Counted from the first letter of the stretch, positions 2,615 through 62,568 are shown. The stretch: 64,000 nucleotides of DNA from an uncultured Gemmatimonadota bacterium (GCA_951812955.1 OX638340.1:576001-640000), one strand, 5' to 3'. Numbers and translations are program-made. Notes: a model not told the origin generated them from the letters alone.

Positions 2615-4369
2615 TCACTGTTCCCTCTTTGCGACAATCATCGTCGTGTCGTCGTCCTGGCTGTCGCCACCCACGAAGGCGCGCCACACTTCGATCACGT
2701 GGTCCCGGATCTCCTCGACCGTGCATGAATGGCAGTCCTTGATCGCCTGCTCCAGCCGGTCGATTCCGAAGATCTCGTCCCTGTCGTTGGATTTCTCGAT
2801 GAGACCATCGGAATACAGGACCACGACATCGCCTTCGTCCAGGTACACGCGTCCGTCCTCGAAACTCGCGTAGTCGAAGGAACCCACGATCAGGCCCCCG
2901 GTGTAAAGGTTGACCGTTTCGCCGGATTTCCTGCACAGCAAGGGCGGCGGATGGCCGGCATTGCAGTAGACGAAGGTGTTTTCCTGCAGGTTCGCGATGC
3001 CGTAGAACAGGGTGGCGAACCGGTCCGCGGACGTGACCTCGTACAGGACCTCGTTGACGTGCCCGATTACGTAACTCGGCAGGTATACGTAGTAATTGGC
3101 AAATTCGTGGAATGACGTGTAGAGCGAAGCCATGGTCAGCGCGGCGGGAATGCCCTTGCCGACCACGTCGCCCACGGCTAGGCCCAGTTGCTTGTCCGAA
3201 AAGGGAATGAAATCGTAGAAGTCGCCCCCGACCTCCCTGCTGGGCTCGCTGAATACGGCCAGGGAAAGGCCGGGCACTTCAGGCACGGCGCGCGGCAAAA
3301 GGGCGCGCTGGATCTCACCGGCGACCTCCAGCTCCCTGTCCAGCAACCGGCTTCGGCGCGCGTCCTCGAACAGGCGCGCGTTCTGTATAGCGATACTTGC
3401 CTGGGAAGCGAAGGCTTCGAGCAGGAACTGGGCTTCCTCGTTGTAAGCGTTTGCCTCGTCGTTTTCGATGTTGAAGACCCCGATCACCTGATCTCCTGAA
3501 AGTATAGGCACGGCCATCTCCGATTTGGTGCCCGGCCGGTGTTGCACGTACCGGTCGTCCCGGGACACGTCCGACACGATGATCGCCCGGCCGGTCTCGG
3601 CCGCTGATCCGCTGATGCCTTCGCCCATTTTCAGGTTGATCGCGTCCAGATCCGGCGAATATCCCCTGATGGTCCGTTCGACCACCGCGTTCCGGTCTTT
3701 GTCGAGAAGAAAGATGGCCGCTGCGTCGTAGGGCACCACGGTCTGCAGCGCATCGATGATCAGGTTCAGCACCTCGCTCAGATCCAGCGAACTGCTAATC
3801 CGCTTTCCCACCTCGTACAGGGCGGTTCGGTGAATCATCTGCTGACGGGCCAGCTTGAAATGCAAAAGGCGCGTGACCGAGTAGCCCGCGTGGCGCGCCA
3901 GAGAAATGGTGACTTCAAGGCGTTCGGAATCAAATTCGGTCTCGCCGGAATCCATGACCGCCAGCAGTACGCAGTGAAACCGGACGTCGATCTGGTGATG
4001 AAACAACACGGCATGGCCGGAGAGGGCATTCCGGTCAGTCATGGCATGCAGGGGCCAGTCCAATTGCTGCACGTCCTCGATCAACCGGGTACTCGGCTGC
4101 GGTCGCAGCCAGGACAGCAATAATTCGACTTCCCGCTCCTCAATGGGTTGGAAAAACCCGCATCCTGCAGTTTCGAAGACGATCCGATTCGAGTCACAGT
4201 CCACCATGAAGAATCGGCAGACTTCCGCGCCGGACAGCTCCAGCGTGATTTCTTCGATGGCGGCGGACAGGTCGGCTTCGTCCGTTGCGGCCGTCATCCG
4301 GGTCAGGCCCTCGACCACGCGGTGCCACAGGATGTCCGATCGCGCTTCTACGATATTTGGTTCCAGCAT
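2615..4369 (-). CDS. GAF-GAF-PP2C (SpoIIE/RsbU-type) serine phosphatase
   Basis: 584 aa. Second GAF domain: 'YDAAAIFLLD...GEGISGSAAETGRAIIVSDV...MAVPI'. C-terminal SpoIIE motifs: 'REVGGDFYDF', 'VGDVVGKGIPAAL', 'LYSDGL', 'DDDTTMIV'. Confidence 0.8.
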   Translation of the reverse strand: MLEPNIVEARSDILWHRVVEGLTRMTAATDEADLSAAIEEITLELSGAEVCRFFMVDCDSNRIVFETAGCGFFQPIEEREVELLLSWLRPQPSTRLIEDVQQLDWPLHAMTDRNALSGHAVLFHHQIDVRFHCVLLAVMDSGETEFDSERLEVTISLARHAGYSVTRLLHFKLARQQMIHRTALYEVGKRISSSLDLSEVLNLIIDALQTVVPYDAAAIFLLDKDRNAVVERTIRGYSPDLDAINLKMGEGISGSAAETGRAIIVSDVSRDDRYVQHRPGTKSEMAVPILSGDQVIGVFNIENDEANAYNEEAQFLLEAFASQASIAIQNARLFEDARRSRLLDRELEVAGEIQRALLPRAVPEVPGLSLAVFSEPSREVGGDFYDFIPFSDKQLGLAVGDVVGKGIPAALTMASLYTSFHEFANYYVYLPSYVIGHVNEVLYEVTSADRFATLFYGIANLQENTFVYCNAGHPPPLLCRKSGETVNLYTGGLIVGSFDYASFEDGRVYLDEGDVVVLYSDGLIEKSNDRDEIFGIDRLEQAIKDCHSCTVEEIRDHVIEVWRAFVGGDSQDDDTTMIVAKREQ

Positions 4370-7637: not shown

Positions 7638-8462
7638 TCAGATCCGAAGCAACAGGGGCAGGAGACTTACCTGGATAAACCTGAGGATCAGGATAGCGAT
7701 CAACGGCGAAAAATCGATGCCGTACGTCGTCGGAAGTAACCTGCGGATCGGTTCCAAAATGGGATCGCTGTACAGGATGAGCATTTGAAAGAGCGCGTTG
7801 CTCGTGTCCGGGTTGAAGAACGAGAGCACCGCGCGTACGAGTATCACGATAAAGAGCACGTCGAATATGAAGTCGACCAGGTAGACGATGCTTCCGAGGA
7901 TCATCCCCGCCGCCGAACCGGCCGCCTGTGCCGCCAGCACGCCGACCTGGTAAAACACCATACCGTGCAGAACACCCAGGAGCACGATGCCCAGCAGTGC
8001 GGAAACGTCCGCGCGACCGATACGGTAGCCGGTGAAGCGGCGGATTGGAGCAAGGAAGAAGTGGGCGATGTTGTGCATCATGTGCCCGGACTGGCTGAAT
8101 GCGAACGGAGACTCGATCGAGATGAAAAAGGCGCCTAGGAACAGGATGGCCAGCACCCGCACTGAAAAATCGAATACATCCAGCAATCCGGAAGTCATGG
8201 AGACGGTGAAGGGGACGCCCATGACGACTGTCGTGAGCATTCCCTGCACTACGACGAGCAAAAGAATGGCAAAGACGGGCGACCAGTCGAAACGGGGCTC
8301 GCCGCGCATGATGACCTGGCGAATCGGCCGCAGCACGGGTTCGGTCGCGGTGTACAGGCCCCTTTGGATCGGATTCTCGCTAAAGGGACTCGCAGCAGGC
8401 ATGAACAGGCGAATTCCGAAGGCCAGCATGTATATGTTGATGATTAACTCGATCAGTCCCAT
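7638..8462 (-). CDS. yggT: YggT family membrane protein with three YggT repeats
   Basis: Three repeats, each ending in a 'P(I/V)(L/R)..IRR' plus 'DFSP/DWSP/DVSA' pattern (e.g. 'DPILEPIRRLLPTTYGIDFSPLIAILIL'). ATG at 8462. The longer start (8531) would overlap yggS. Confidence 0.75.
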   Translation of the reverse strand: MGLIELIINIYMLAFGIRLFMPAASPFSENPIQRGLYTATEPVLRPIRQVIMRGEPRFDWSPVFAILLLVVVQGMLTTVVMGVPFTVSMTSGLLDVFDFSVRVLAILFLGAFFISIESPFAFSQSGHMMHNIAHFFLAPIRRFTGYRIGRADVSALLGIVLLGVLHGMVFYQVGVLAAQAAGSAAGMILGSIVYLVDFIFDVLFIVILVRAVLSFFNPDTSNALFQMLILYSDPILEPIRRLLPTTYGIDFSPLIAILILRFIQVSLLPLLLRI

Positions 8463-28451: not shown

Positions 28452-30788
28452 ATGGTAATGGAGTTTGGCAATATCCTTACCGCTTACTTCGATTTCATCT
28501 GGATGTCGTTCCTGCTTCTGGGTCCGATGTTGATGCTGGGTCTGCTGCTTTCGGGCCTGATCCACGTTTTCATCTCCCGGGAAGCGATACTCAGATGGCT
28601 TCAGGACGACAGCCTTCGCTCGGTCTCAATCAGTTCCGCCGTAGGCGTTCCGGTACCGCTCTGCAGCTGTTCCGTCGTTCCCGTAGTTGCCGAAATGCGA
28701 CGAAAGGGGGCTTCCCGCTCATCCTGCATGGCCTTCCTGATTACGGCGCCTGAAACCGGGGCCGACTCCATCCTCGTCACGAACGCTTTTTTCGGCTTCA
28801 TCGCCGCCGTTGTGCGACCTGTCATCAGTTTTATCACAGCCGTCGTGGCGGGTATTTTCTGCATCGGCCTGATCCGGGACGATAGTGGCGAGGCCAAGCC
28901 GGAGGAGGAAGACCACGGACACGCCCACCACGACCATGACCACGGTCACGACCATGGACATGACCACGATCATGACCACGATCACTCGGTCCACGATCCG
29001 CTGCTGTCGGACAAGGATGACTGCTATGTAAGCCCCTCCGCCATGAAGATCCTCATGACGAAGTGGATCAAGGGGTTGACTACCGTGGCGTCCACCTGGA
29101 GGTTCGGATCGTGGATCAAACCGGAATTCTACCGGGAGATCATCGGAGAGCAACCGGCGAAATCCGCGAATCGGACCGAACTGGATGAGGTGGAAGAAAA
29201 ATACCCCGGGCTCGATTTCAAGAAGATCGTCAAGCATATCTTCCACTACGGCTTTGTCGAGATCGCCGATGATATACTCTTCGCGCTGCTCGTCGGTATC
29301 GCGCTGGGCGGCGTGCTGTTCCTGGTCATACCGGCCGACCTGATGTCCAACGAATACGCACGCTGGCTTTCCTACCCCGTAATGATCATCGTCGGCGTGC
29401 CCCTTTACATCTGCGCCTCCGCCAGCACGCCGATTGCCGCCGCGCTGGTCGCCCGGGGCGTCAGTCCAGGGGCCGCCCTGATATTCCTGATGACAGGCCC
29501 CGCGACCAACACAAGCACCATCGCCATCATCATGAGTCAGTTCGGCGCGCGTTTCGCGGCCGTATACGTCACGTCAGTCATCGCGGTCACCGCGGTGATC
29601 GGCATAGCCATCGATTTCATACTGGTGGCCACCGGGTTTGCCATTTCCGTCAACCTGTTGCCTTCCGATTCCCCCACGCTTCAAATTCTGCAGTGGGGCG
29701 GCGCGCTCGGGCTGATCGCGCTTATCGTCTGGAGGTACCGCGCCGGCGCCATGCGCAGCGGTTACGAAGACCTCATGCTCAACATCCGACCCTTCTCCCG
29801 GCCATGGCGGAACACGTGGAAGCGGCTGACCCGTGACCGGTCGTTCCGGGGTACGATTTCACCCACCACACCCATGGGCATGATGCTGTGGGGCTTGCTG
29901 CTGGTCCTCTTTCTTGGCAGCGGGTTCACGGCCGTGCCGCCGGGTCACGTCGGATACGGCCGGTTGTTCGGCGAGGTATACTGGAAAGACCTTCAGCCCG
30001 GGCTTCATTACCTGGCGCCGCGCCCCCTCGTCCAGGTCGACAAGTGGCCAGTCAGGGAAGTAAAATCAATTATGTCCGAGACACCGTACGAGTACGTGTC
30101 GGGCGACCTGAACATGCTCACGCTCACCCTGGACGTCCAGTACCGGGTAAACGACCCGTACACGTATCACTACCGTACGGTCGATCCGGAAGAGATCATC
30201 GAAGACGCGGTGCGCGAGCACGTTCGTACTTTTGTCAACGCACGTGACCTGGATCGGCTCCTCACTGCATACCGGGCGGAACTGGAAGATGAGCTGACGA
30301 ATCTCTTCGTGACGGATGCCCGGATGCACGGCGACAAGTCGGTGCTTGGCACCGTCGACCTCGTGAAGGTCAGCCTGCTGAACGTCACCCCGGCGGCGGA
30401 AGCCCTGAGTTCCTTCCGGGAGATTTCAAGCGCCCAGGAAGACAGGGAAAGAATCATCGTCAACGCGCAACGGTTCATGGTGTCCCTGGTGCCGCGCGCT
30501 CACGGCAATGCCGAGTATGAGAAAGAACAGGCCGATGGAGAGGCATTTCGCAAGGTGGCGACCTCCGCGGCGGAAGCGGATGCCATTATGGTCATTTCTT
30601 CTGCCATGCAGACGGCGCCGGAAGTCCTGCGGAACATGCTGTGGCGGGAAAAGTTGGAATCCGCTCTCGCCGGCAATCCCAAGATTATCGTGCCCAACAG
30701 ACAGAGTTTCAACAAGGTCGCGATCTGGAAAAAGAGGCCGGCGGAAGCCGCCGCCCCATCCGCCAAGACAGGAGGTAAAGGCAAATGA
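28452..30788 (+). CDS. fusion protein: DUF318/ArsP-type (SO_0444-like Cu/Zn efflux) permease + His-rich loop + HflK-like SPFH (Band 7) domain
   Basis: One uninterrupted 778-codon ORF. N-terminal half is polytopic with 'VPVPLCSCSVVPVVAEM' and 'APETGADS'. Loop with 14 His in 29 residues. From about aa 474, a TM anchor 'MGMMLWGLLLVLFLGSGF' followed by 'VPPGHVGYGRLFGEVYWKDLQPGLHY' and a coiled-coil tail. Confidence 0.75.
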   Translation: MVMEFGNILTAYFDFIWMSFLLLGPMLMLGLLLSGLIHVFISREAILRWLQDDSLRSVSISSAVGVPVPLCSCSVVPVVAEMRRKGASRSSCMAFLITAPETGADSILVTNAFFGFIAAVVRPVISFITAVVAGIFCIGLIRDDSGEAKPEEEDHGHAHHDHDHGHDHGHDHDHDHDHSVHDPLLSDKDDCYVSPSAMKILMTKWIKGLTTVASTWRFGSWIKPEFYREIIGEQPAKSANRTELDEVEEKYPGLDFKKIVKHIFHYGFVEIADDILFALLVGIALGGVLFLVIPADLMSNEYARWLSYPVMIIVGVPLYICASASTPIAAALVARGVSPGAALIFLMTGPATNTSTIAIIMSQFGARFAAVYVTSVIAVTAVIGIAIDFILVATGFAISVNLLPSDSPTLQILQWGGALGLIALIVWRYRAGAMRSGYEDLMLNIRPFSRPWRNTWKRLTRDRSFRGTISPTTPMGMMLWGLLLVLFLGSGFTAVPPGHVGYGRLFGEVYWKDLQPGLHYLAPRPLVQVDKWPVREVKSIMSETPYEYVSGDLNMLTLTLDVQYRVNDPYTYHYRTVDPEEIIEDAVREHVRTFVNARDLDRLLTAYRAELEDELTNLFVTDARMHGDKSVLGTVDLVKVSLLNVTPAAEALSSFREISSAQEDRERIIVNAQRFMVSLVPRAHGNAEYEKEQADGEAFRKVATSAAEADAIMVISSAMQTAPEVLRNMLWREKLESALAGNPKIIVPNRQSFNKVAIWKKRPAEAAAPSAKTGGKGK

Positions 30789-50901: not shown

Positions 50902-51420
50902 CTAGCGGCCTATCTTGATCGTACTGCCCATCGCCTGGTCCCGCGAGGTATCCTGGGAGACCTGCTCCACCACCTCGAGTACCTGGAATTCCGTCTGCAG
51001 CAGGTCCGACAGGGATATGTGATCGAGCACACCGGACAGGTACCGGGCCAGCACCGTCCAGACGGGACGGATGGCGCATGCGTTCAGGTGCGTGCACGCT
51101 TCCAGGTGACCGGAGAAATGTTCGCACATGTGGCTGTCCGGGCTGGTGAGCACAACCCCGTCTTCCGAACTCAGGGCGCGCATGACTTCGCCCAGCGAAA
51201 TGGTGTGCGGTTCCTTCTCCAGTGCGTAGCCACCCCTGATACCCCTTACGCTTCGTACAAGACCTGACCGCCTGAGGATCATCAGCAGTTTCGAGACGTA
51301 GTCCAGGGAAATGCCTTCCGATTCTGCGATTTGACGGCCCGTGACCGGGTCACGGGAATGGTGCCGTGCCAGCTGCAGAATGCAACGAAGGCCATATTCT
51401 TCCTGGGCGGTCACTTTCAT
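50902..51420 (-). CDS. Rrf2 family transcriptional regulator (IscR/SufR-like), first gene of the suf operon
   Basis: wHTH 'EEYGLRCILQLARH...ISLDYVSKLLMILRRSGLVRSVRGIRGGY'. Cys residues 'MCEHFSGHLEACTHLNAC' are candidate cluster ligands. Confidence 0.85.
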   Translation of the reverse strand: MKVTAQEEYGLRCILQLARHHSRDPVTGRQIAESEGISLDYVSKLLMILRRSGLVRSVRGIRGGYALEKEPHTISLGEVMRALSSEDGVVLTSPDSHMCEHFSGHLEACTHLNACAIRPVWTVLARYLSGVLDHISLSDLLQTEFQVLEVVEQVSQDTSRDQAMGSTIKIGR

Positions 51421-54072: not shown

Positions 54073-55263
54073 TCAGCCCCTCACATCCCGCCAGGGACGA
54101 ACCATAATCCGCTCGAAACCTGCCGGATCGATGTCCACGCCGAGTCCCGGGCCCGGTGGTACCGCCACGCAGCCGTCCTCATCCAACACAAAAGGCTCGG
54201 CGAAATAACCCTTGCCGATGAACGTCCGCCCATCCTCGCGCCAGCAATTCACTTCATTGTGTTCCTGGACCAGGAAGTTCGACGCGCAGGCGTCGATCTG
54301 AATGGATGCGGCGAGGGCCAGCGGGCTTAAGGGGCAGTGCAGGGCGAGTTTCGCATAGGCGCTTTCACCCATCACCGCGATCTTGTGACACTCGGTGATG
54401 CCGCCGGCGTGGCACAGGTCCGGCTGCATCACGGACAGGGCGTTCTTGCGCAGGGCGTCGTAGAAGATCCACTTGCCCATCCAACGTTCGCCGGCTGCGA
54501 TAGGGATTTCGCTGTTGCGCGCGATGTCCGCGAGCACGTCGACCCGTTCCACGGGCATGGGTTCCTCGATGAACAGGGGCCGGTGCGGCGTCAGGGCCGA
54601 TATCATCTGTTTGGCCATCACGGGGTGTGGATTATGGATATCCACGGCCACTTCCACATCGGGCCCGGCGCCCCTGCGCACGGCGGCGAAGGCTTCGGCG
54701 ATCCGCTCCACCTCCGAGGTGGGTTCCAGTCCGGTGCCCATGCCCACGTGCAGCTTCATGCACCGGAAGCCCCACTCCTCGACAATGACCCTGGCCGCCT
54801 CCTCATGCGCCCCGGGAAAATCCACGTCCGGGTCATACGAAGGATGATAACCCGCGTCGTAGGGCTGCCCGGGTTCCACGTACCAGGGCAGTTGTCCCCC
54901 CACAGCGCGGTACATGCGTATCCGGTCGCGGCAGGCTCCGCCAAGCATGGCATGGACCGGAAGCCCTGCGGCTTTGCCGGCAAGGTCCCAGAGCGCCATG
55001 TCGATTCCGCTGATCGCGCTCATCTTCACCGGTCCGCCGACATATCCCGAACCGCCCTCGTACATGGTATGCCAGAGCGACTCGACGCGGCAGGGGTCTT
55101 TCCCGACAAGCAACGGCTCCAGGCGCCGCACCTCGGCGATGACGCTTTCCGGGTGGTTTTCCAGGTAGGGTTCGCCCCAGCCGAACAGTTCGGTGTCCGT
55201 GTGGATCTTCAGCCATACCCAACTCGGCGGAACGCGCAGGATTTCGAAGTGAGTGATTCGCAT
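54073..55263 (-). CDS. enolase-superfamily (mandelate racemase/muconate lactonizing) sugar-acid dehydratase, galactonate-dehydratase-like
   Basis: N-terminus 'MRITHFEILRVPPSWVWLKIHTDTELFGWGEP' parallels the DgoD pattern. Metal ligands in 'VAVDIHN', 'LFIEEP', 'AAGERW'. 'QPDLCHAGG'. Confidence 0.8.
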   Translation of the reverse strand: MRITHFEILRVPPSWVWLKIHTDTELFGWGEPYLENHPESVIAEVRRLEPLLVGKDPCRVESLWHTMYEGGSGYVGGPVKMSAISGIDMALWDLAGKAAGLPVHAMLGGACRDRIRMYRAVGGQLPWYVEPGQPYDAGYHPSYDPDVDFPGAHEEAARVIVEEWGFRCMKLHVGMGTGLEPTSEVERIAEAFAAVRRGAGPDVEVAVDIHNPHPVMAKQMISALTPHRPLFIEEPMPVERVDVLADIARNSEIPIAAGERWMGKWIFYDALRKNALSVMQPDLCHAGGITECHKIAVMGESAYAKLALHCPLSPLALAASIQIDACASNFLVQEHNEVNCWREDGRTFIGKGYFAEPFVLDEDGCVAVPPGPGLGVDIDPAGFERIMVRPWRDVRG

Positions 55264-55340: not shown

Positions 55341-56318
55341 CTATCGGCCATAGACCGTCTGGATCATCGCACGGATGTAGCCGTTCGCGTAGGCCTTGCC
55401 TGCCGGACCAGCCATTGATTGGGGGAAGCCCGGTGTGTGGTCCATGCCGAAGGGGCCGCTGTACCCGTTATCGCGGTAGGTTTCCATGGCCCGGCGCATA
55501 TCCACTTCGCCCTCGTCGATGAAAACCTCCGCGAACCTCGGCAGCCGGCCTCTGACGTTCCGGAAATGGACCAGGGCGATCTTTTTCCGGGAGGCCATCT
55601 CGGCGATGATATGGTAGACGTCCTGTGGACCCGCCAGTTCGGTCATGCAACCCTGGCAGAAGAGCATCCTGTGATATGCGCTGGGTACCGCGTCGAAAAT
55701 CCGGCGGAAATGCTCCACCGTGGAGCAGATCTGCGCGACGCCGCCCAGAGGCTCCGGTATGGGCGGGTCGTCCGGGTGGAGCGCCAGGTTTACCCCGGCC
55801 TTTTCGGCCGCCGGGACCGCGGCGCGCATGAAGGCGACCATGTTGTCCCACATCACCTCGGCCGAGACGGGCGGCTCGTGGGGCTGCGGGCGGCTCCGGT
55901 CGAATTCGGCATAATCGAAGGTACTGTACACCGCGCCGCCGCGGCCGATGTCGGAAATGGTGCGGAAGTTGCCCATGGGCTTGAAATTCCAGGCCAGGGT
56001 CGGTATCCCTGCCTTGCCCAGGCATTCGATAAGCCGGACGAAAGCGCCCAGTTCTTCGTCCCGTTCCGCCGTGGCCAGCGTGATCCCCTCCAGGACCGGC
56101 ATGAAGACGGTCTGCAGTTTCAGCCCATGGGACTCGGTCTTTTCCCGGGCCTGTTCGAAAAGCTCGGTACTGTCTTTGCCCGCACGAACGTGCCGTTCCG
56201 CTTCGACCTTCCCTCCGGTCCTCAGGTCCAGCTGGATCATGTCCACGCTGATCGCGCGATAGAAACTAAGGGTCTCGTCGTTGAAATCGGACCAGTTTAC
56301 GACATCATGCAGGTACAT
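55341..56318 (-). CDS. uxuA: mannonate dehydratase (UxuA) family protein
   Basis: 'LALHPDDPPIPEPLGGV', 'LVHFRNVRG', 'GEVDMRRAMETY', 'PFGMDHTPG' parallel E. coli UxuA 'MAVHPDDPPRPILGLP', 'THLRS', 'GDVDMYEVV', 'PMRPDHGH'. GGAGG SD. Confidence 0.7.
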   Translation of the reverse strand: MYLHDVVNWSDFNDETLSFYRAISVDMIQLDLRTGGKVEAERHVRAGKDSTELFEQAREKTESHGLKLQTVFMPVLEGITLATAERDEELGAFVRLIECLGKAGIPTLAWNFKPMGNFRTISDIGRGGAVYSTFDYAEFDRSRPQPHEPPVSAEVMWDNMVAFMRAAVPAAEKAGVNLALHPDDPPIPEPLGGVAQICSTVEHFRRIFDAVPSAYHRMLFCQGCMTELAGPQDVYHIIAEMASRKKIALVHFRNVRGRLPRFAEVFIDEGEVDMRRAMETYRDNGYSGPFGMDHTPGFPQSMAGPAGKAYANGYIRAMIQTVYGR

Positions 56319-56380
56319 CGATCGCCTCCAATGCTGGCGCTACGGGTTGGACGACTTCCGCTTCGACCTGACCTACGGGA

Positions 56381-56428
56381 TGGTGATCTGGTGATCTGGT
56401 GATCTGGTGATCTGGTGATCTGGTGATA
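56381..56428. repeat. octanucleotide tandem repeat (TGGTGATC)x5 + TGGTGATA
   Basis: Read directly. Perfect 8-bp phasing from 56381. Creates five GATC sites 8 bp apart. Lies 63-110 bp upstream of the uxuA-like start codon. Confidence 0.95.
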
Positions 56429-56534
56429 AGATAACCCCCCGGGCCAGTGCAGCAATTCGAAAATCGATCAGACACCACGTATATCCATATTGGGCTAACG
56501 CAAAGCGGAATCATGTATTATAATCGGTAGTCCG

Positions 56535-56619
56535 GCGCACCCGTAGGCATAGCGCATCCATAGGCTAAGCGCATCCGTAGACTGAGCGCATCCGTAAGCC
56601 GGCGCATCCGAATATCGCG
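56535..56619. repeat. five phased 17-bp tandem repeats, core GCGCAYCCRTARR
   Basis: 'GCGCA' recurs at 56535, 56552, 56569, 56586 and 56603, exactly 17 bp apart. Units: gcgcacccgtaggcata / gcgcatccataggctaa / gcgcatccgtagactga / gcgcatccgtaagccgg / gcgcatccgaatatcgc. Confidence 0.95.
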
Positions 56620-56687
56620 TACGGAAACACGGAGTCAATCCCATCCCATTTCAATCTCGGCAGGCAAACGACACAGGAGCCCTTCCA

Positions 56688-57413
56688 ATGGCGGAACGCA
56701 ACTTGAAACAGCGCATCGGCGCGGGAGAACAGGTCATCGGCGCTAACGTCGGCATGTCCCATACAAGGGAACAGCTTAAAAAGGTAGTAGAGTCAGGTGA
56801 GTACGACTTTCTCTGGGTAGACGGACAGCACAGCGCTTTCAGCGAAGACTCCCTGGTGGAATTCTGCGACAGGGCCGATGCGCTGGATGCCGACGTCATG
56901 TTCCGCATCAAGCACACGTTTCACAGCTACCTGGTCGGTAACCTGCTCGACCTTGGGCCCGCCGGGATCGAAGTGCCCCAGGTCGAATTGGAATCAACGG
57001 TGGATGAGGCGGTCGACTTCTTCTACTATCCTCAGCAGGGCATGCGGAGCTGGGGAGGCGGAGCGCGGCGTAAAGTGGATGAACAGGGCGGCGACCGGCT
57101 GGGCTATGCCGAGTGGTGGAACAACTACGGCGTGCTGATGATGCAGCTTGAATCGATACCCGCGGTGACAGGTGCGCGGAGACTGGCCAAAGCGGGGGTA
57201 GACTGCCTGTCCTTCGGTCCAAACGATCTCATGTACAGTATCGAGGCCCATCCGCACCATCCGTTCCGCGACGTGGACGATTGCGTTCGCCACGTGGTCG
57301 AACAGCTCGCCGGTTCCGGTACGAGGGTGTGTTTCCGGAACCACCCGGCCAGCATGCGGCAGCGGTACGTTGACATGGGTGTAACGGTGTTTCTGGAGAG
57401 TCCGTCGCTGTAG
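56688..57413 (+). CDS. HpcH/HpaI family 2-keto-3-deoxy-sugar-acid aldolase
   Basis: 'LKQRIGAGEQVIG', 'YDFLWVDGQHS', 'MFRIKH', 'GIEVPQVE', 'MMQLES', 'DCLSFGPNDL'. AGGAG SD 8 nt upstream. Confidence 0.8.
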   Translation: MAERNLKQRIGAGEQVIGANVGMSHTREQLKKVVESGEYDFLWVDGQHSAFSEDSLVEFCDRADALDADVMFRIKHTFHSYLVGNLLDLGPAGIEVPQVELESTVDEAVDFFYYPQQGMRSWGGGARRKVDEQGGDRLGYAEWWNNYGVLMMQLESIPAVTGARRLAKAGVDCLSFGPNDLMYSIEAHPHHPFRDVDDCVRHVVEQLAGSGTRVCFRNHPASMRQRYVDMGVTVFLESPSL

Positions 57414-57486: not shown

Positions 57487-59316
57487 TTATGCGCCGGGAC
57501 GCCCTCCGGCAATGTCGGATTTCGCATCGAAATCCAAAGACTGAGCCTCGTACATCTTCGCGAATAGACCACCCTGTTCTACCAGTTCCTTCGGCGTACC
57601 CGATTCGGCCAGTCGGCCCTCACTGATAACCAGGATGCGATCCGCGTGCCGGATCGTCGAGAGTCTGTGGGCGATGACCATGATGGTTCGGCCGGTCCTT
57701 GCCCGTTCGACGGCGATTCGGATCTCTTCTTCGGCCAGTGCATCCAGGGCCGAAGTGGCCTCGTCAAGCACGAGAATACAGGTCGAGGTCCGCATGAGCG
57801 CACGGGCCATGGCGATGCGTTGCTTTTCACCACCGGATAGCAGGATACCGTCTTCTCCCGCCTCGGTAGCGTACCCTTCCGGCAGATTCTCAACGAATTC
57901 GTGCAGTGCGGAAGAACGCGCGGCTCGCTCCACCGCCTCAATTTCATAGTCCGCAACGGGGTAAGCGATGTTGTCGGCAAGCGAAGCGTTCCACATGAAA
58001 ACATCCTGGGGCACGACGGCGATTCGCGACCTGAGAGAGGCCAGCGTCATCTCGCGTACATCCGTTCCGCCAATGGAAATGCTTCCGCTTTCTGGTTCCT
58101 GCATACGGGTCAGCAGGTCGATGATCGTGGTCTTCCCGCCGCCGCTCGGCCCCACGATGCCGACGAACTCACCCCCGTTGACCGTGAAGGAGAGATCTTT
58201 CACCTCGTATCCCCGTTCATAACTGAACCAAATGTCGGAAAACTCGATAGTCGGAGGCGTGATGTCGATCCGTTCCACCGGGCGTCCACGGCCGAATCCT
58301 TCCTCAGCGGGAAGCGCGAATAATCCGTCCAGGCTCTTCACGGAGACGTCGATGAGTTTTGTGCCGGTATAGGTCGCAATTACGGACCGCAACGCGGCGG
58401 AGGCTCTCGGCGTATAGGCCATGACGGCCACGAGACTGCCGATGGTGATATCACCGGCCATGGCCTGGAAAGCGCCATATCCGAGGAGGACGCCCAGGAC
58501 CAGTCCGCTGATCACTTCGTTCGGAAAGTTGAGCACGATATCGTGGAGGGCCGCACCACGCATCTTAACCCGGGCGTGTTTTTCTAATAGCCCCCCACAT
58601 CGCTTCCTGGTATGCGTTTCCCCATTGAACAGGCGTATCGTACGAAACGCGCCGACCATCTCGTAGAGGAAGCTCTCGACGGCCTTGCTCTGTTCGTTCG
58701 AACGGCGGTCCATTTCCTTCGAGTACCTGGACAGGAACCGGGTGGCCAGGTACGTCGCCGGCATCGCGACACAGAAAATCACCGCGAGTTCGACATTTAG
58801 CAGGAACACCATGATCAGCGTCCCCGCCAGCATGATCGAGCTTGTAAAGACGGGGAGCAGTTCCTGCGCGATGTACATCTCGCCGATCCGGCCGGTATCC
58901 CGCGTAACGCGAAAGACGATGTTCCCCCTGGGGATCTTTTCCAGGGCGTCCAGCCTGACATGCAGAAGGTGGTTCAGGACCGCCTTGCGCAGGGCAAGGG
59001 TAACCGACGCACCGATGCGGACCCGCAGATGTCCCTGTACGTAGGAGAAAGCGATCGCCACCAGCGGCGTGGCGACCATGGCCACCAGCAGTCTCCACGC
59101 CAGTGTTGTATCCGACTCCGGGATCGCCGTGTCGAAGAGCATTTTGAAGAACAGGGGCTGGATCAGCATGACCGCTGATCCAGCGAGCATCATGATAACC
59201 GCGGCGCCAATAGTATACTTATGTTGATACAGCGTCTGCCGAACGACTTTGGCGGCATGTGCCACCGGTTCTTTGTTCCTGTGGACTCGATTGGCTTTCC
59301 GATCGTCTGATGGCAT
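57487..59316 (-). CDS. ABC exporter, fused permease/ATPase (MsbA-like type I exporter)
   Basis: Six-TM N-terminal domain. Walker A 'GPSGGGKTT'. Signature 'LSGGEKQRIAMARAL'. Walker B 'ILVLDEATSALD'. AGGAGA SD. Confidence 0.9.
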   Translation of the reverse strand: MPSDDRKANRVHRNKEPVAHAAKVVRQTLYQHKYTIGAAVIMMLAGSAVMLIQPLFFKMLFDTAIPESDTTLAWRLLVAMVATPLVAIAFSYVQGHLRVRIGASVTLALRKAVLNHLLHVRLDALEKIPRGNIVFRVTRDTGRIGEMYIAQELLPVFTSSIMLAGTLIMVFLLNVELAVIFCVAMPATYLATRFLSRYSKEMDRRSNEQSKAVESFLYEMVGAFRTIRLFNGETHTRKRCGGLLEKHARVKMRGAALHDIVLNFPNEVISGLVLGVLLGYGAFQAMAGDITIGSLVAVMAYTPRASAALRSVIATYTGTKLIDVSVKSLDGLFALPAEEGFGRGRPVERIDITPPTIEFSDIWFSYERGYEVKDLSFTVNGGEFVGIVGPSGGGKTTIIDLLTRMQEPESGSISIGGTDVREMTLASLRSRIAVVPQDVFMWNASLADNIAYPVADYEIEAVERAARSSALHEFVENLPEGYATEAGEDGILLSGGEKQRIAMARALMRTSTCILVLDEATSALDALAEEEIRIAVERARTGRTIMVIAHRLSTIRHADRILVISEGRLAESGTPKELVEQGGLFAKMYEAQSLDFDAKSDIAGGRPGA

Positions 59317-59470: not shown

Positions 59471-60742
59471 CTATCCCTGCCCCGATCCGCCGAGGACGTC
59501 TTCCAACTCGTTCACGAACACCTCGAGTTCGTCCGGCTTCCCGATGGTTACCCGCAGGTGATTGCTCAGGAGATTGATCTCCCTCGTCCGGTACCCGGAA
59601 CCGCCCCGTACCATCACGCCGCGTTCCATAAGCGCGGAGCCCATGCGGCGGCTGTCCCGCTTGACGTCCACGATCATGTAATTGCCGTGGCTCGGTGTGT
59701 ATGCCAGTCCCAGACGGTCGAATTCGGCGGACAGGTAGTCCTTGCCGTCGCTCACGACCTCTTTCGTACGGGCTACGAATTCGTGATCGTCCAGGGCCGC
59801 GAGGGCCGCGTGCATGCCCAGGGTGCTCAGTCCGCCGCCGAAGAACCCCATGTGCGCCATCAGCATATCCATCATGCGCTGGCTGCCGATCGCGTACCCG
59901 ATTCGCATGCCGGCCAAGCCGTAGATCTTGGAAAAAGTACGGGCGACGACCACATTGTCTCGCTCCAGGGCGAGTTTCGCGGCATCCCGGTAGTCCGGAT
60001 CCCGGACGAAGTGGATGTAGGCCTCGTCGATGAGGACGATGGCCTGCGCTGGCGCCGCGTCTACGAGGGACACCAGGTCCTCGTAGGGCACGATCGTTCC
60101 CGTGGGATTGTTGGGATTGGTGACGACGATCAGGGATGTTCTTGGAGTGATTGCCGCCTTCATGGCGTCGAGGTCGTGAACGAAGTCAGCCGTCGTGGGA
60201 ACGCGGACGGTACTGACGTCCTTGCCCATCATCTGATAGGTTTGAAAACCACGCGCGACCGATCCATAACCCGGGACCGCCTCGATGCACTCCCCGCCAT
60301 TGCTCGCGGCTATTACGGCCAGCGCCTGTAGTATCGGACCGGAACCAGGCGTGACCATTACCCGGTTCAACTCCCTGAAACGCATGAATGACCGCATGTC
60401 GCTAAAGCTCAGTTCGAAATCCTCGACACCCGGAACGCCGTGTAATTTGTTGAGACGAACGGGCAGATCGACACCGAAATCGTACCGGTTGATCTTGTGC
60501 AGGTTTTCGGCAATGGCCGCAACGGCGCGTGGCGAAGCGCCCAGGGGATTCTCGTTGGCTCCAATCTGGACCCGGCCCGGTTCCACGCCGTATCCGCGGA
60601 CGTCGCCGGCCTTCTTACCGGTCGCCATGGCCTGCGCGATCTCCCAGGCCGAACCTGAGGCGAGGGCGCCGGCACCCAGCAGGGCGCCTTTCATGAATCG
60701 ACGCCGCGTAAACCCGTTTTTTAATACACTCCCGAAACCCAT
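59471..60742 (-). CDS. class I/II (HisC-like) pyridoxal-phosphate aminotransferase with twin-arginine (Tat) signal peptide
   Basis: ATG 60742 has GGAGG 8 nt upstream. 'MGFGSVLKNGFTRRRFMKGALLGAGALASGSA' is a Tat-type signal. 'GANENPLG', 'NPNNPTG', 'ARTFSKIYGLAGMRIGY' (PLP Lys). Confidence 0.8.
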   Translation of the reverse strand: MGFGSVLKNGFTRRRFMKGALLGAGALASGSAWEIAQAMATGKKAGDVRGYGVEPGRVQIGANENPLGASPRAVAAIAENLHKINRYDFGVDLPVRLNKLHGVPGVEDFELSFSDMRSFMRFRELNRVMVTPGSGPILQALAVIAASNGGECIEAVPGYGSVARGFQTYQMMGKDVSTVRVPTTADFVHDLDAMKAAITPRTSLIVVTNPNNPTGTIVPYEDLVSLVDAAPAQAIVLIDEAYIHFVRDPDYRDAAKLALERDNVVVARTFSKIYGLAGMRIGYAIGSQRMMDMLMAHMGFFGGGLSTLGMHAALAALDDHEFVARTKEVVSDGKDYLSAEFDRLGLAYTPSHGNYMIVDVKRDSRRMGSALMERGVMVRGGSGYRTREINLLSNHLRVTIGKPDELEVFVNELEDVLGGSGQG

Positions 60743-60903
60743 GGTATGAACCTCCATTCAATGATTACTCGTAAATTGCATCGTATCTACAAAGTGTACA
60801 CCACCTAAGAGTCTGAACCTCCAACTAAAGATTGCCTGCGGATTTCCCACCATCCAAATGTGTAACGCCTGAATTCGAAACCTTATTTCGCTACCTTATT
60901 TCG

Positions 60904-62568
60904 TTACCTGATGTTGAGCCTTGCCATTTGCGTGACGATGTAGTCGGCGCAGCGGAACGCGAGCGCCTGTATGGTTAGCGTCGGGTTGCTCTTGCCGCTG
61001 GTGACGAAGGACGAACCGTCGACGATGAACAGGTTGTCCACGTCGTGGGCCTGGTTGAACTTGTTCACGACCGACGTCGCCGGATCGTTGCCCATTCGGC
61101 AAGTGCCCATGAGATGGGCGTCGCCATGGGGCACGAAATTCGGAGAGGCCACGATCCCATGGGCGCCGGCGGTGTCCAGCAGTTCGCGTGCGCGGTCCCG
61201 AAAGAAGTCGCCGAGTTTGTGCTCGTTCGGATGCACGTTGTACGTCACACGCGGTACCGGCAGGCCCCACTTGTCGTTTACGTCCGGGTCCAGGTCGATC
61301 ATGTTGGATTCCTGGGACATGGACTGCATGCTGGTAAGGGCGACCATGTACCGGGTGTAATTGTCCATGATCCATTTCTTGCGGCGGGCGCCCCACCTGC
61401 GGAGCCGGGGCATGTTCAGGTTGGCGAAGGAAATGGTTTCGCCGTCACCCCGCGGTTCCAGCACGCCTCCGCCGAAGAAACCGTACTTGTCCGGATCCGG
61501 GTCGTAGAAATCCTGGATAATGCGTGAATCCATGACGCCTTTGTACTCGTTGAGATCCTTTTCGTAGAATCCCCGGGCGGACTGGTAGTAGTTGAACATC
61601 AGGTGCCTTCCCACCTTGCCGCTGCTGTTGGCGAGGCCGTCCGGAAAGAGATTGGACTTCGACATGAGCAGCAGGCGCGGCGTATGGACGCCGTTACAGC
61701 AAACGATTACCGCGCGGGCTTCCAACCGGTGTTCACGCAGGTCTTTATCCAGATAGATCACTCCCTCGGCCCGGCCATCCTCGTCGACCACGATCTCCCG
61801 AACGCAGGCATCGGCCCGTATCTGGCAGTTGCCCGTCCTCAGCGCCTGGGGAATCATGGTAACCAGCATGCTGGACCGCGCGCCGATGGTACAGACGTAA
61901 CTTTCGCAGAAACCGCAATTCATGACCGGCGGCCGGCCTCCGTATTCCCGCGAGTTGATTGCCAGCGGCGCCGGATACGAGTGCCATCCCAGCTTCTGGG
62001 CGGCCATGTCTGCCAGGGCGCCCGAACTGGTTCGCGGCACCGGCGGCATGGGGTAGGGACGGCGTCGCGGCGGATCGAAGGGATTGGCGCCCGCCAGGCC
62101 GGATATCCCGACTTCGTATTCGGCCTTCTCGTAGTAATGTTCCAGGTCCCAGTAGTCGATGGGCCAGTCCTGCACGTCCGCGCCGTCCAGGTCGCCGAAA
62201 AGGCTTCTTTCCTTGAAATCGTTCTCGTGCAGCCGCCAGGAAATACCGGTGTAATGGAGCGTGCTGCCGCCCACCGTGCTTTGCATGTGAATCCCGTGAT
62301 CTTCAACGGCCTGATCGTCCGACGACTGCCGGTACGTATTGGGCTGATCGTGGCGATAGATGTTGGGATGGTCATGGTTATTGCTGGCGGGATGCATCGC
62401 CTGGAGTTCGTCCTGGTCGAAGTGGCGCGTCTTTTGAAATGATCCCATTTCCATGGCGACCACCTGCAGGCCCTTCGTGCTCAGTTCCTTGGCCATGACC
62501 GCGCCGGCGGCGCCTGTGCCGATGACGATGACGTCCGGTCGTCGAATCGTGGGATTGGGCAGGGACAT
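60904..62568 (-). CDS. GMC family FAD-dependent oxidoreductase (catalytic subunit; no signal peptide of its own)
   Basis: '[18 protein letters not shown]' FAD fold. C-terminal 'HLMGTCRMG...[22 protein letters not shown]'. Start lies 13 nt after the subunit-3 stop. Confidence 0.85.

Follow-up and report, generated by a model that had tools for sequence, protein, structure and literature searches.

The tandem array that lies between a perfect TATAAT hexamer and the start codon of an HpcH/HpaI-family aldolase gene is probably a minisatellite of the initial transcribed region, born by slippage and restricted to a few lineages, and either neutral or a mild, fixed modifier of expression. It belongs to a 64,000-nt stretch of DNA, hereafter called the window, to which all positions refer unless another locus is named. 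The argument for this reading comes from the anatomy of the array, from its restricted distribution and single-copy progenitor, and from the way individual units can be matched between lineages.

The pentamer GCGCA recurs at 56535, 56552, 56569 and 56586 with an exact spacing of 17 bp, and the four units that it opens (56535–56601) each match GCGCAYCCRTARR with no mismatch. The first-pass annotation had described five exactly phased 17-bp repeats. Four of them are indeed in exact phase, but the fifth GCGCA sits at 56602, not 56603, after a final step of 16 bp, and its unit is degenerate, reading GCGCATCCGAATA with two mismatches to the core. TRF reports the tract with a period of 17, 3.6 copies, 84% matches and a score of 82, and a second, overlapping TRF row extends to 56610. 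Each unit is made of a 12-nt core and a 5-nt spacer, and the units are head-to-tail direct copies in non-coding DNA, with a period that is not a multiple of three. Given this 12+5-nt unit and this period, and with no cas or rep genes found, a CRISPR, an iteron origin and a coding repeat were all rejected. Perfect matches to the core are confined to the array in the whole 64-kb window; when up to two mismatches are allowed, the window holds 15 matches against 20.9 expected, and the 10 that fall outside the array are at chance level.

The tract lies between a conserved −10 box and the ATG at 56688. The TATAAT, correctly placed at 56519–56524 on the plus strand from the outset, is part of the block CATTATAATCG (56516–56526), which occupies the same position in each of the 20 orthologous genome loci and in all additional assemblies that were recovered (L047–L080), although L008, L011, L014 and L021 carry one-base variants of it; the flanking leader diverges freely. 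Because this block is conserved in every orthologous locus recovered, the TATAAT is very probably the real −10 box of the aldolase promoter. The hexamer at the −35 position, CTAACG (56495–56500, plus strand, 18-nt spacer, within the block CCATATTGGGCTAACG at 56485–56500), is poor, which is why a consensus promoter scan did not call this promoter. Transcription would likely start near 56531, that is, 7 nt past the −10 box, and the array would then form the first ~85 nt (about +4 to +85) of a ~157-nt aldolase 5′ UTR. The earlier proposal that the hexamer is used, and that the array stands in the 5′ UTR of the aldolase mRNA, is thus supported by the conservation of the box in orthologs. A Shine-Dalgarno sequence, AGGAG (56675–56679, plus strand), lies 8 nt 5′ of the aldolase ATG and is kept in orthologs as ACAGGAG.

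The aldolase gene itself (56688–57413, plus strand, 241 aa) is monocistronic and is followed by a convergent ABC-transporter gene. The latter (57487–59316) is missing at the L003-type, L051 and L079 loci, where an aminotransferase gene comes directly after the aldolase; this is a gene-content difference between close lineages. On the other side, a divergent UxuA-like gene of the mannonate dehydratase family (55341–56318, minus strand) is followed by a galactonate dehydratase gene (54073–55263). The intergenic region between the UxuA-like and aldolase genes (56319–56687) spans 369 bp and, when aligned, shows a ~100-bp core with the conserved blocks AAGATAGAC, GCAA...AAAT, CCAnATTGGnCTAaCG and CATTATAATCG. 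The block CCAnATTGGnCTAaCG (56485–56500 in the window, aligned in L002–L021) lies 5′ of the −10 box in all orthologs and overlaps the −35 position with poor likeness to TTGACA; it may be a lineage-specific −35 element or a regulator site. A divergent promoter is predicted on the minus strand (56428–56455), with the −35 TTGCTG at 56455–56450, a 16-nt spacer and the −10 TATCTT at 56433–56428. The AAGATAGAC and GCAA blocks are kept in 21 sequences, and on the minus strand their AAGATA and GCAA read TATCTT and TTGC(T/A/C)G with a 16-nt spacer. These blocks would thus represent the promoter of the UxuA-like operon.

The aldolase protein of the window is also encoded on a 184-kb ENA metagenome contig. 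For comparison, a scan of GTDB species genomes gave 20 orthologous loci with 82–100% protein identity, all of them in MAGs labelled Gemmatimonadetes/Gemmatimonadota, Latescibacterota or simply ‘bacterium’, and several of their bin names point to sponges as hosts. The two protein clusters to which the window aldolase and its nearest relatives belong yielded ~30 more assemblies. Among the loci recovered, the 17-bp array is limited to three closely related lineages: that of the window, with five units; the L002 type (L002, L044 and L068–L076; aldolase 96.1% identical to the window at the nucleotide level), with seven; and the L003 type (L003 and L060–L065; 93.6%), with six. It is absent from the 18 other orthologous genome loci (L004–L021), and the near relatives L047/L048 (aldolase 92.3% nucleotide identity) and L077/L078 (86.2%) have one copy each, with promoter, leader tail and Shine-Dalgarno sequence all intact. 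The first-pass annotation had named the absence of the array from orthologous regions, with regulation unchanged, as an observation that would speak against a regulatory role, and, as far as can be read from sequence, this is the state of the near relatives.

The single-copy loci also identify the progenitor. In the same intergenic backbone, L047/L048 read TAATCGGGTAGTCCG-GCGCACCCGCATATTGTATACCG... and L077/L078 read ...GGATCATCCGGATATCACGTACGG..., each with one copy. The terminal unit of the array (GCGCATCCGAATATCGC, 56602–56618, plus strand), which is identical in the window, L002 and L003, is homologous to the single-copy GCGCACCCGCATATTGTATACCG of L047 and ATCATCCGGATATCACGTACGG of L077, and together with its flank (GCGCATCCGAATATCGCGTACGG) it aligns with the single-copy sequence of both. 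It is, therefore, the ancestral single-copy sequence and not a new copy. Once the four extra units are subtracted, the leader measures ~100 nt, and the leaders of array-less orthologs are mostly 95–115 nt long. All other orthologs carry a single CCGG(A)...(U)CCGG inverted repeat past the −10 box, at the site of the array. Its homologue in the window is the promoter-proximal inverted repeat CCGGCGC-N11-GCGUaCGG (56599–56624, plus strand), a weak stem-loop that is present in both the MFE and the centroid structures and is the only consistent element of the leader fold. At the upstream end, the D3 repeat family (56523–56543 versus 56590–56610, 81%) and the comparison with single-copy L047 and L077 point to a ‘zeroth’, diverged partial copy, CGGTAGTCCG (56525–56534, plus strand). 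This segment corresponds to the 3′ part of the unit and precedes unit 1, so that the array in fact begins only 1 nt past the TATAAT; it would be the original discriminator and start-site region, and the source of the unit. The ...CCG end of unit 4 is similar to the sequence that precedes unit 1.

We propose that a tandem duplication of the first ~16–17 bp past the −10 box took place in the common ancestor of the three lineages, the probable mechanism being slipped-strand mispairing of two short, imperfect repeats, ATCGG and ATCCG. In sequence, the unit is the same as the ancestral segment GTAGTCCGGCGCAYCC(G), which is flanked by just these imperfect direct repeats, a configuration expected for slipped-strand duplication and the basis on which we infer slippage. 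The duplicated segment would have included the discriminator and the start site, along with the 5′ half of the conserved CCGG...CCGG inverted repeat. Amplification to four extra copies in the window, five in the L003 type and six in the L002 type would have followed, and the copies would then have drifted apart through point mutation, with the promoter, the ancestral copy and its weak stem-loop, the leader tail and the Shine-Dalgarno sequence left intact. The sole direct consequence would be a stretch of weakly structured extra RNA (67 nt in the window) near the 5′ end of the aldolase leader. Such an array would most likely be neutral, or would at most modify the mRNA level in a mild and fixed way, and would have no dedicated binding factor; its persistence may be explained by leaders that tolerate insertions and by units that, being 71–82% alike, slip rarely. 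Taken at face value, the array is of little importance, and its interest is that it documents well how tandem amplification of its own first bases may lengthen a bacterial 5′ leader.

Bacterial intergenic minisatellites, or VNTRs, are slippage-generated tandem repeats with units of ~10–100 bp. The array shares with them a head-to-tail, non-coding unit of local origin, copy-number differences between lineages and the existence of single-copy relatives. It differs from them in being invariant within each sampled lineage and in having degenerate units (71–82%), and also in that it starts 1 nt past the −10 box and has the presumed initial transcribed region as its amplified unit. One of the facts that count against the minisatellite reading is the persistence of the array through species-level divergence: all three lineages keep 5–7 units, and in none of them has it collapsed.

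How the array changes over time can be read from its units. Between lineages, orthologous units are identical at 16–17 of 17 positions, versus 12–14 of 17 (71–82%) for neighbouring units of one array. Thus, unit 1 (GCGCACCCGTAGGCATA, 56535–56551) is orthologous to unit 1 of L002 and to unit 1 of L003 (16/17 each), unit 2 (GCGCATCCATAGGCTAA, 56552–56568) finds its best match in unit 3 of L003 (16/17), unit 3 (GCGCATCCGTAGACTGA, 56569–56585) is identical to unit 5 of L002 and unit 4 of L003 (17/17), and unit 4 (GCGCATCCGTAAGCCG, 16 nt, 56586–56601) is best matched by unit 5 of L003 (16/17), all on the plus strand. Since orthologous units match better than neighbours do, the array is older than the split of the three lineages and has not been homogenised; its changes come about through rare gain or loss of whole units. 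Within lineages, the seven-unit array is identical in 9/9 assemblies (L068–L076) and the six-unit array in 6/6 (L060–L065), the assemblies being independent consensus sequences from different samples. These patterns suggest an old, slowly evolving minisatellite and no phase-variable tract. In practical terms, the possession of 5, 6 or 7 units provides a stable lineage marker for these uncultured sponge-associated bacteria.

The same data bear on whether the array could be a contingency locus, in which frequent slippage would change the number of units and thereby switch or grade aldolase expression. Precedents exist in the 7-bp repeats in the promoter/5′ leader of Haemophilus influenzae hmw1A and hmw2A (PMC2424069, PMC8262952) and in the AGAT repeats upstream of Moraxella catarrhalis uspA2 (PMC7302503), where the repeat number alters the mRNA level and the tracts consist of perfect 4–7-bp units in 9–28 copies that vary among isolates (PMC2424069, PMC8262952, PMC7302503). 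Like these tracts, the array consists of tandem repeats between a promoter and a start codon, and by analogy it could exert a quantitative effect of the same kind on the mRNA level. Its copy number differs between related genomes (5, 6 and 7, with a single-copy state in relatives), and a neighbouring 8-bp array is perfect and expanded to six copies versus two, both of which would fit frequent slippage. Unlike hmwA and uspA2, however, the array has 5–7 diverged 17-bp units, is invariant across 15 assemblies and stands 5′ of a sugar-acid aldolase gene, a metabolic gene and not a surface or restriction-modification gene. The turnover must also be slow, with units 71–82% alike and orthologous units still recognisable. 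Phase variation is therefore very unlikely; it was already largely refuted by the invariance within lineages, and we rejected it on this ground.

A more specific function, binding of a protein to each unit, is kept alive by a single piece of evidence. The changes between paralogous units cluster in the spacer (positions 13–17), with 3 in the core versus 7 in the spacer (7/10, binomial p=0.009), and such clustering would be expected of a constrained 12-nt binding site. Each 12-bp core GCGCAYCCRTAG might then bind one subunit of a transcription factor, and the whole would act as a multi-site operator or a roadblock just past the start site; in one variant, the array would be an amplified half-site of the ancestral CCGG...CCGG palindrome. 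The position from +4 to +85 would suit a roadblock, the ancestral inverted repeat is kept in sequence and not by covariation, as an operator would be, and two inverted CTACGGG copies are found at 56340 and 56373. However, among orthologous units the substitutions amount to 7/72 in the core versus 6/30 in the spacer (p=0.19), which is no significantly stronger constraint. The best-conserved letters of the ancestral repeat were lost on amplification, CCGG having become CTGA, CATA or CTAA before GCGCA, and L002 is without an intact CCGG...CGG pair at the distal end. Furthermore, a 17-bp period places successive sites on different faces of the helix, and close relatives with the same promoter do without the array.

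Searches for a cognate protein and for a regulon gave no support to such binding either. Pfam analysis of the neighbouring genes found no adjacent DNA-binding regulator, and the single one among the larger ORFs scanned (~38 kb to the window end) is an Rrf2 protein (50902–51420) beside the suf genes, so that the earlier remark that no regulator gene lies nearby holds for DNA-binding regulators. A search for other copies of the motif, of the kind recommended with the original description, found none in the 64-kb window; in the 443 kb of fetched DNA, too, the only further copies were at loci that the search pattern itself had selected. A metagenome scan for two phased units returned the same locus only (L044, of the L002 type); the other matches, at about the chance rate, were one soil family, one duplicated contig pair and two singletons, at unrelated loci. 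The soil family (L036, L038, L040–L043 and L046, JGI soil/peat contigs) shares a conserved, unrelated locus with GCGCATCCGTAA-N5-GCGCATCCGTAG directly 5′ of the ribosome-binding site, and it was found because the pattern demanded this arrangement, the match count being near chance. A motif for a common trans-acting factor in the two divergent leaders was also dropped, as a local alignment of the left leader with the right one, compared with shuffles, gave no significant similarity in the window lineage (p~0.4) and low p values only sporadically in others. Iterons and tandem operators are 17–22-bp direct repeats bound by Rep proteins or repressors, and the array resembles them in unit length and in the combination of conserved core and variable spacer; it differs from them in having no cognate protein gene, origin context or other sites, and in units that are not phased with the helix. 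Altogether, we consider it unlikely that the cores are iterated DNA sites, and we would note that an operator role need not follow from an array of conserved core and spacer beside a perfect promoter.

A role at the RNA level is just as improbable in our view. Here, the two downstream ACGGA arms would be contested by the 5–7 copies of the 5′ arm AUCCGUA, or these copies would offer a single-stranded pad to an RNA-binding protein, and in either way they would tune the stability or translation of the aldolase mRNA. The two arms, GTACGGA (56619–56625) and ACGGAG (56629–56634, both plus strand), are complementary to UCCGU(A) of the units, and the complementarity noted from the start between GTACGGA and the TCCGTA of units 3 and 4 is real and extends over 6 nt. 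The MFE structure has unit 4 paired to the second ACGGA (56591–56595 with 56629–56633), with the retained hairpin enclosed between them; alternative pairings of the downstream arms with several units, as had been suggested, are thus possible on paper. The RNA of the array is unusually unstructured, which would leave it accessible: the leader is less structured than shuffled sequences (z = +2.03), and 197/200 shuffles fold at least as well. The core, as described above, is kept among paralogs. However, low structure is the outcome of any direct repeat. In the 21-sequence ortholog alignment, 74% of cells of the ancestral inverted repeat are pairable, yet no covariation was found in CCGG...CCGG across these sequences and RNAalifold gave no consensus structure, while neither the stem-loop at 56599–56624 nor the single-copy hairpins are more stable than shuffles. 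The ancestral repeat is compatible with either an RNA hairpin or a DNA palindrome. Rfam had no match in the whole window at the gathering threshold, nor in the intergenic region on either strand at E<=10. There is also no terminator or helix sequestering the Shine-Dalgarno sequence that the units could switch, and the array is absent in close relatives.

Several other leader functions were considered and rejected: a leader peptide or uORF, as the leader has no start codon and has stops in all frames; an attenuator, as there is no terminator-like site; and sigma-dependent pause elements (TAGRCT hexamers, −10-like), as only about one unit in two, taken over the lineages, contains TANNNT. In sum, the dedicated operator, roadblock or RNA-switch role first put forward for the array lacks support, given its absence in near relatives, the z of +2.0, the empty Rfam search, the uniqueness of the motif and a core with no significantly stronger constraint between orthologs.

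A published case of repeats in such leaders is the intergenic direct repeat TAACTGA of Beggiatoaceae, cyanobacteria and Bacteroidetes, a single heptamer present at 169 places genome-wide, mostly beside start codons, for which the authors propose binding of a post-transcriptional regulator (PMC4679880). Both cases involve an uncultured marine bacterium whose 5′ leaders contain short direct repeats. The unit described here, in contrast, is limited to one locus, measures 17 nt and is located at the 5′ end of the leader.

The opposite strand offers a further candidate. A promoter-like TTGACT-16-GATATT (minus strand, 56638–56611) points back through the array, and a transcript initiated near 56604 would contain four to five (C/U)GGAUG motifs, spaced by ~17 nt; such an antisense small RNA might act as a sponge for a CsrA/RsmA-like protein. 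Indeed, the antisense strand reads ...ACGGAUGCGC... repeatedly, with GGA at four positions (ACGGAUG-type), and the ~17-nt spacing resembles that of the GGA motifs in CsrB-type RNAs. Against this stand the lack of any Rfam CsrB/Rsm match even at E<=10, the lack of a terminator, GGA motifs that do not fall consistently in hairpin loops of the predicted fold, and the missing element in close relatives. We consider an antisense RNA of this kind highly improbable.

The intergenic region holds a second array, (TGGTGATC)x5.9 (56381–56427, TRF), whose units are 100% identical and each contain GATC. It is immediately adjacent to the predicted −10 box of the minus strand (TATCTT, 56433–56428) and, if the divergent promoter is used, would make up the initial ~40 nt of the leader that precedes the UxuA-like operon; with both promoters in use, both window arrays would lie within initial transcribed regions. 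The 8-bp unit is present in two copies in the L002- and L003-type lineages and in about one in L047, so it expanded recently, and in the window lineage alone.

Tandem duplications with unrelated units occur in other lineages, too, at these two positions of the leaders. In the aldolase leader, L018 has 25 nt x3.8 (3841–3936), L007 has 9 nt x2, and L017 has both 9 nt x2.4 and 15 nt x2.1; in the UxuA leader, the corresponding duplications are 9 nt x4 in L016 (3746–3781), 22 nt x3.9 in L019 (3693–3778), 22 nt x2 in L010 and 31 nt x2.2 in L015 (3744–3813). In the last of these, the AAGATA box itself is included in the duplication. At a TRF score of at least 50, the array density is 1.53 per kb in the focal intergenic region versus 0.31 in other intergenic DNA and 0.054 in coding DNA of the same loci, about five times more arrays per kb than in the other intergenic DNA. 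The simplest reading is that the conserved promoter core refuses insertions and the leaders accept them; the ~5-fold excess could, however, reflect selection rather than tolerance, and if selection were the true cause, the core GCGCAYCCRTAG would be a real site for a putative DNA- or RNA-binding factor of sponge symbionts.

In all, about ten independent amplification events are seen among ~25 orthologous regions, and both arrays of the window start 0–1 nt from a −10 hexamer. It is conceivable, if rather doubtful, that the stretches just past the two divergent −10 boxes are recurrent targets of tandem amplification, either through a promoter-linked mutational process, such as slippage at open or ‘scrunched’ DNA occupied by RNA polymerase, or through repeated selection of altered leaders. 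That unrelated duplications recur at two promoter-proximal positions is, in our view, the one point here worth the attention of specialists, and if it held genome-wide, it would point to a promoter-associated slippage hotspot.

Tandem repeats were also observed elsewhere in the window and its orthologs. L018 has a 16 nt x9.6 array at 8297–8450. An intergenic array 5′ of the aminotransferase gene (59471–60757, minus strand) consists of 13 nt x2.3 in the window (60880–60909) and of 13 nt x4.2 in L002 (5251–5305). Finally, a 12-nt x4.8 repeat (ACCACGATCATG) is found at 28927–28985, inside the ORF at 28452–30788; if read in the frame of that ORF, it would encode a His/Asp-rich stretch.
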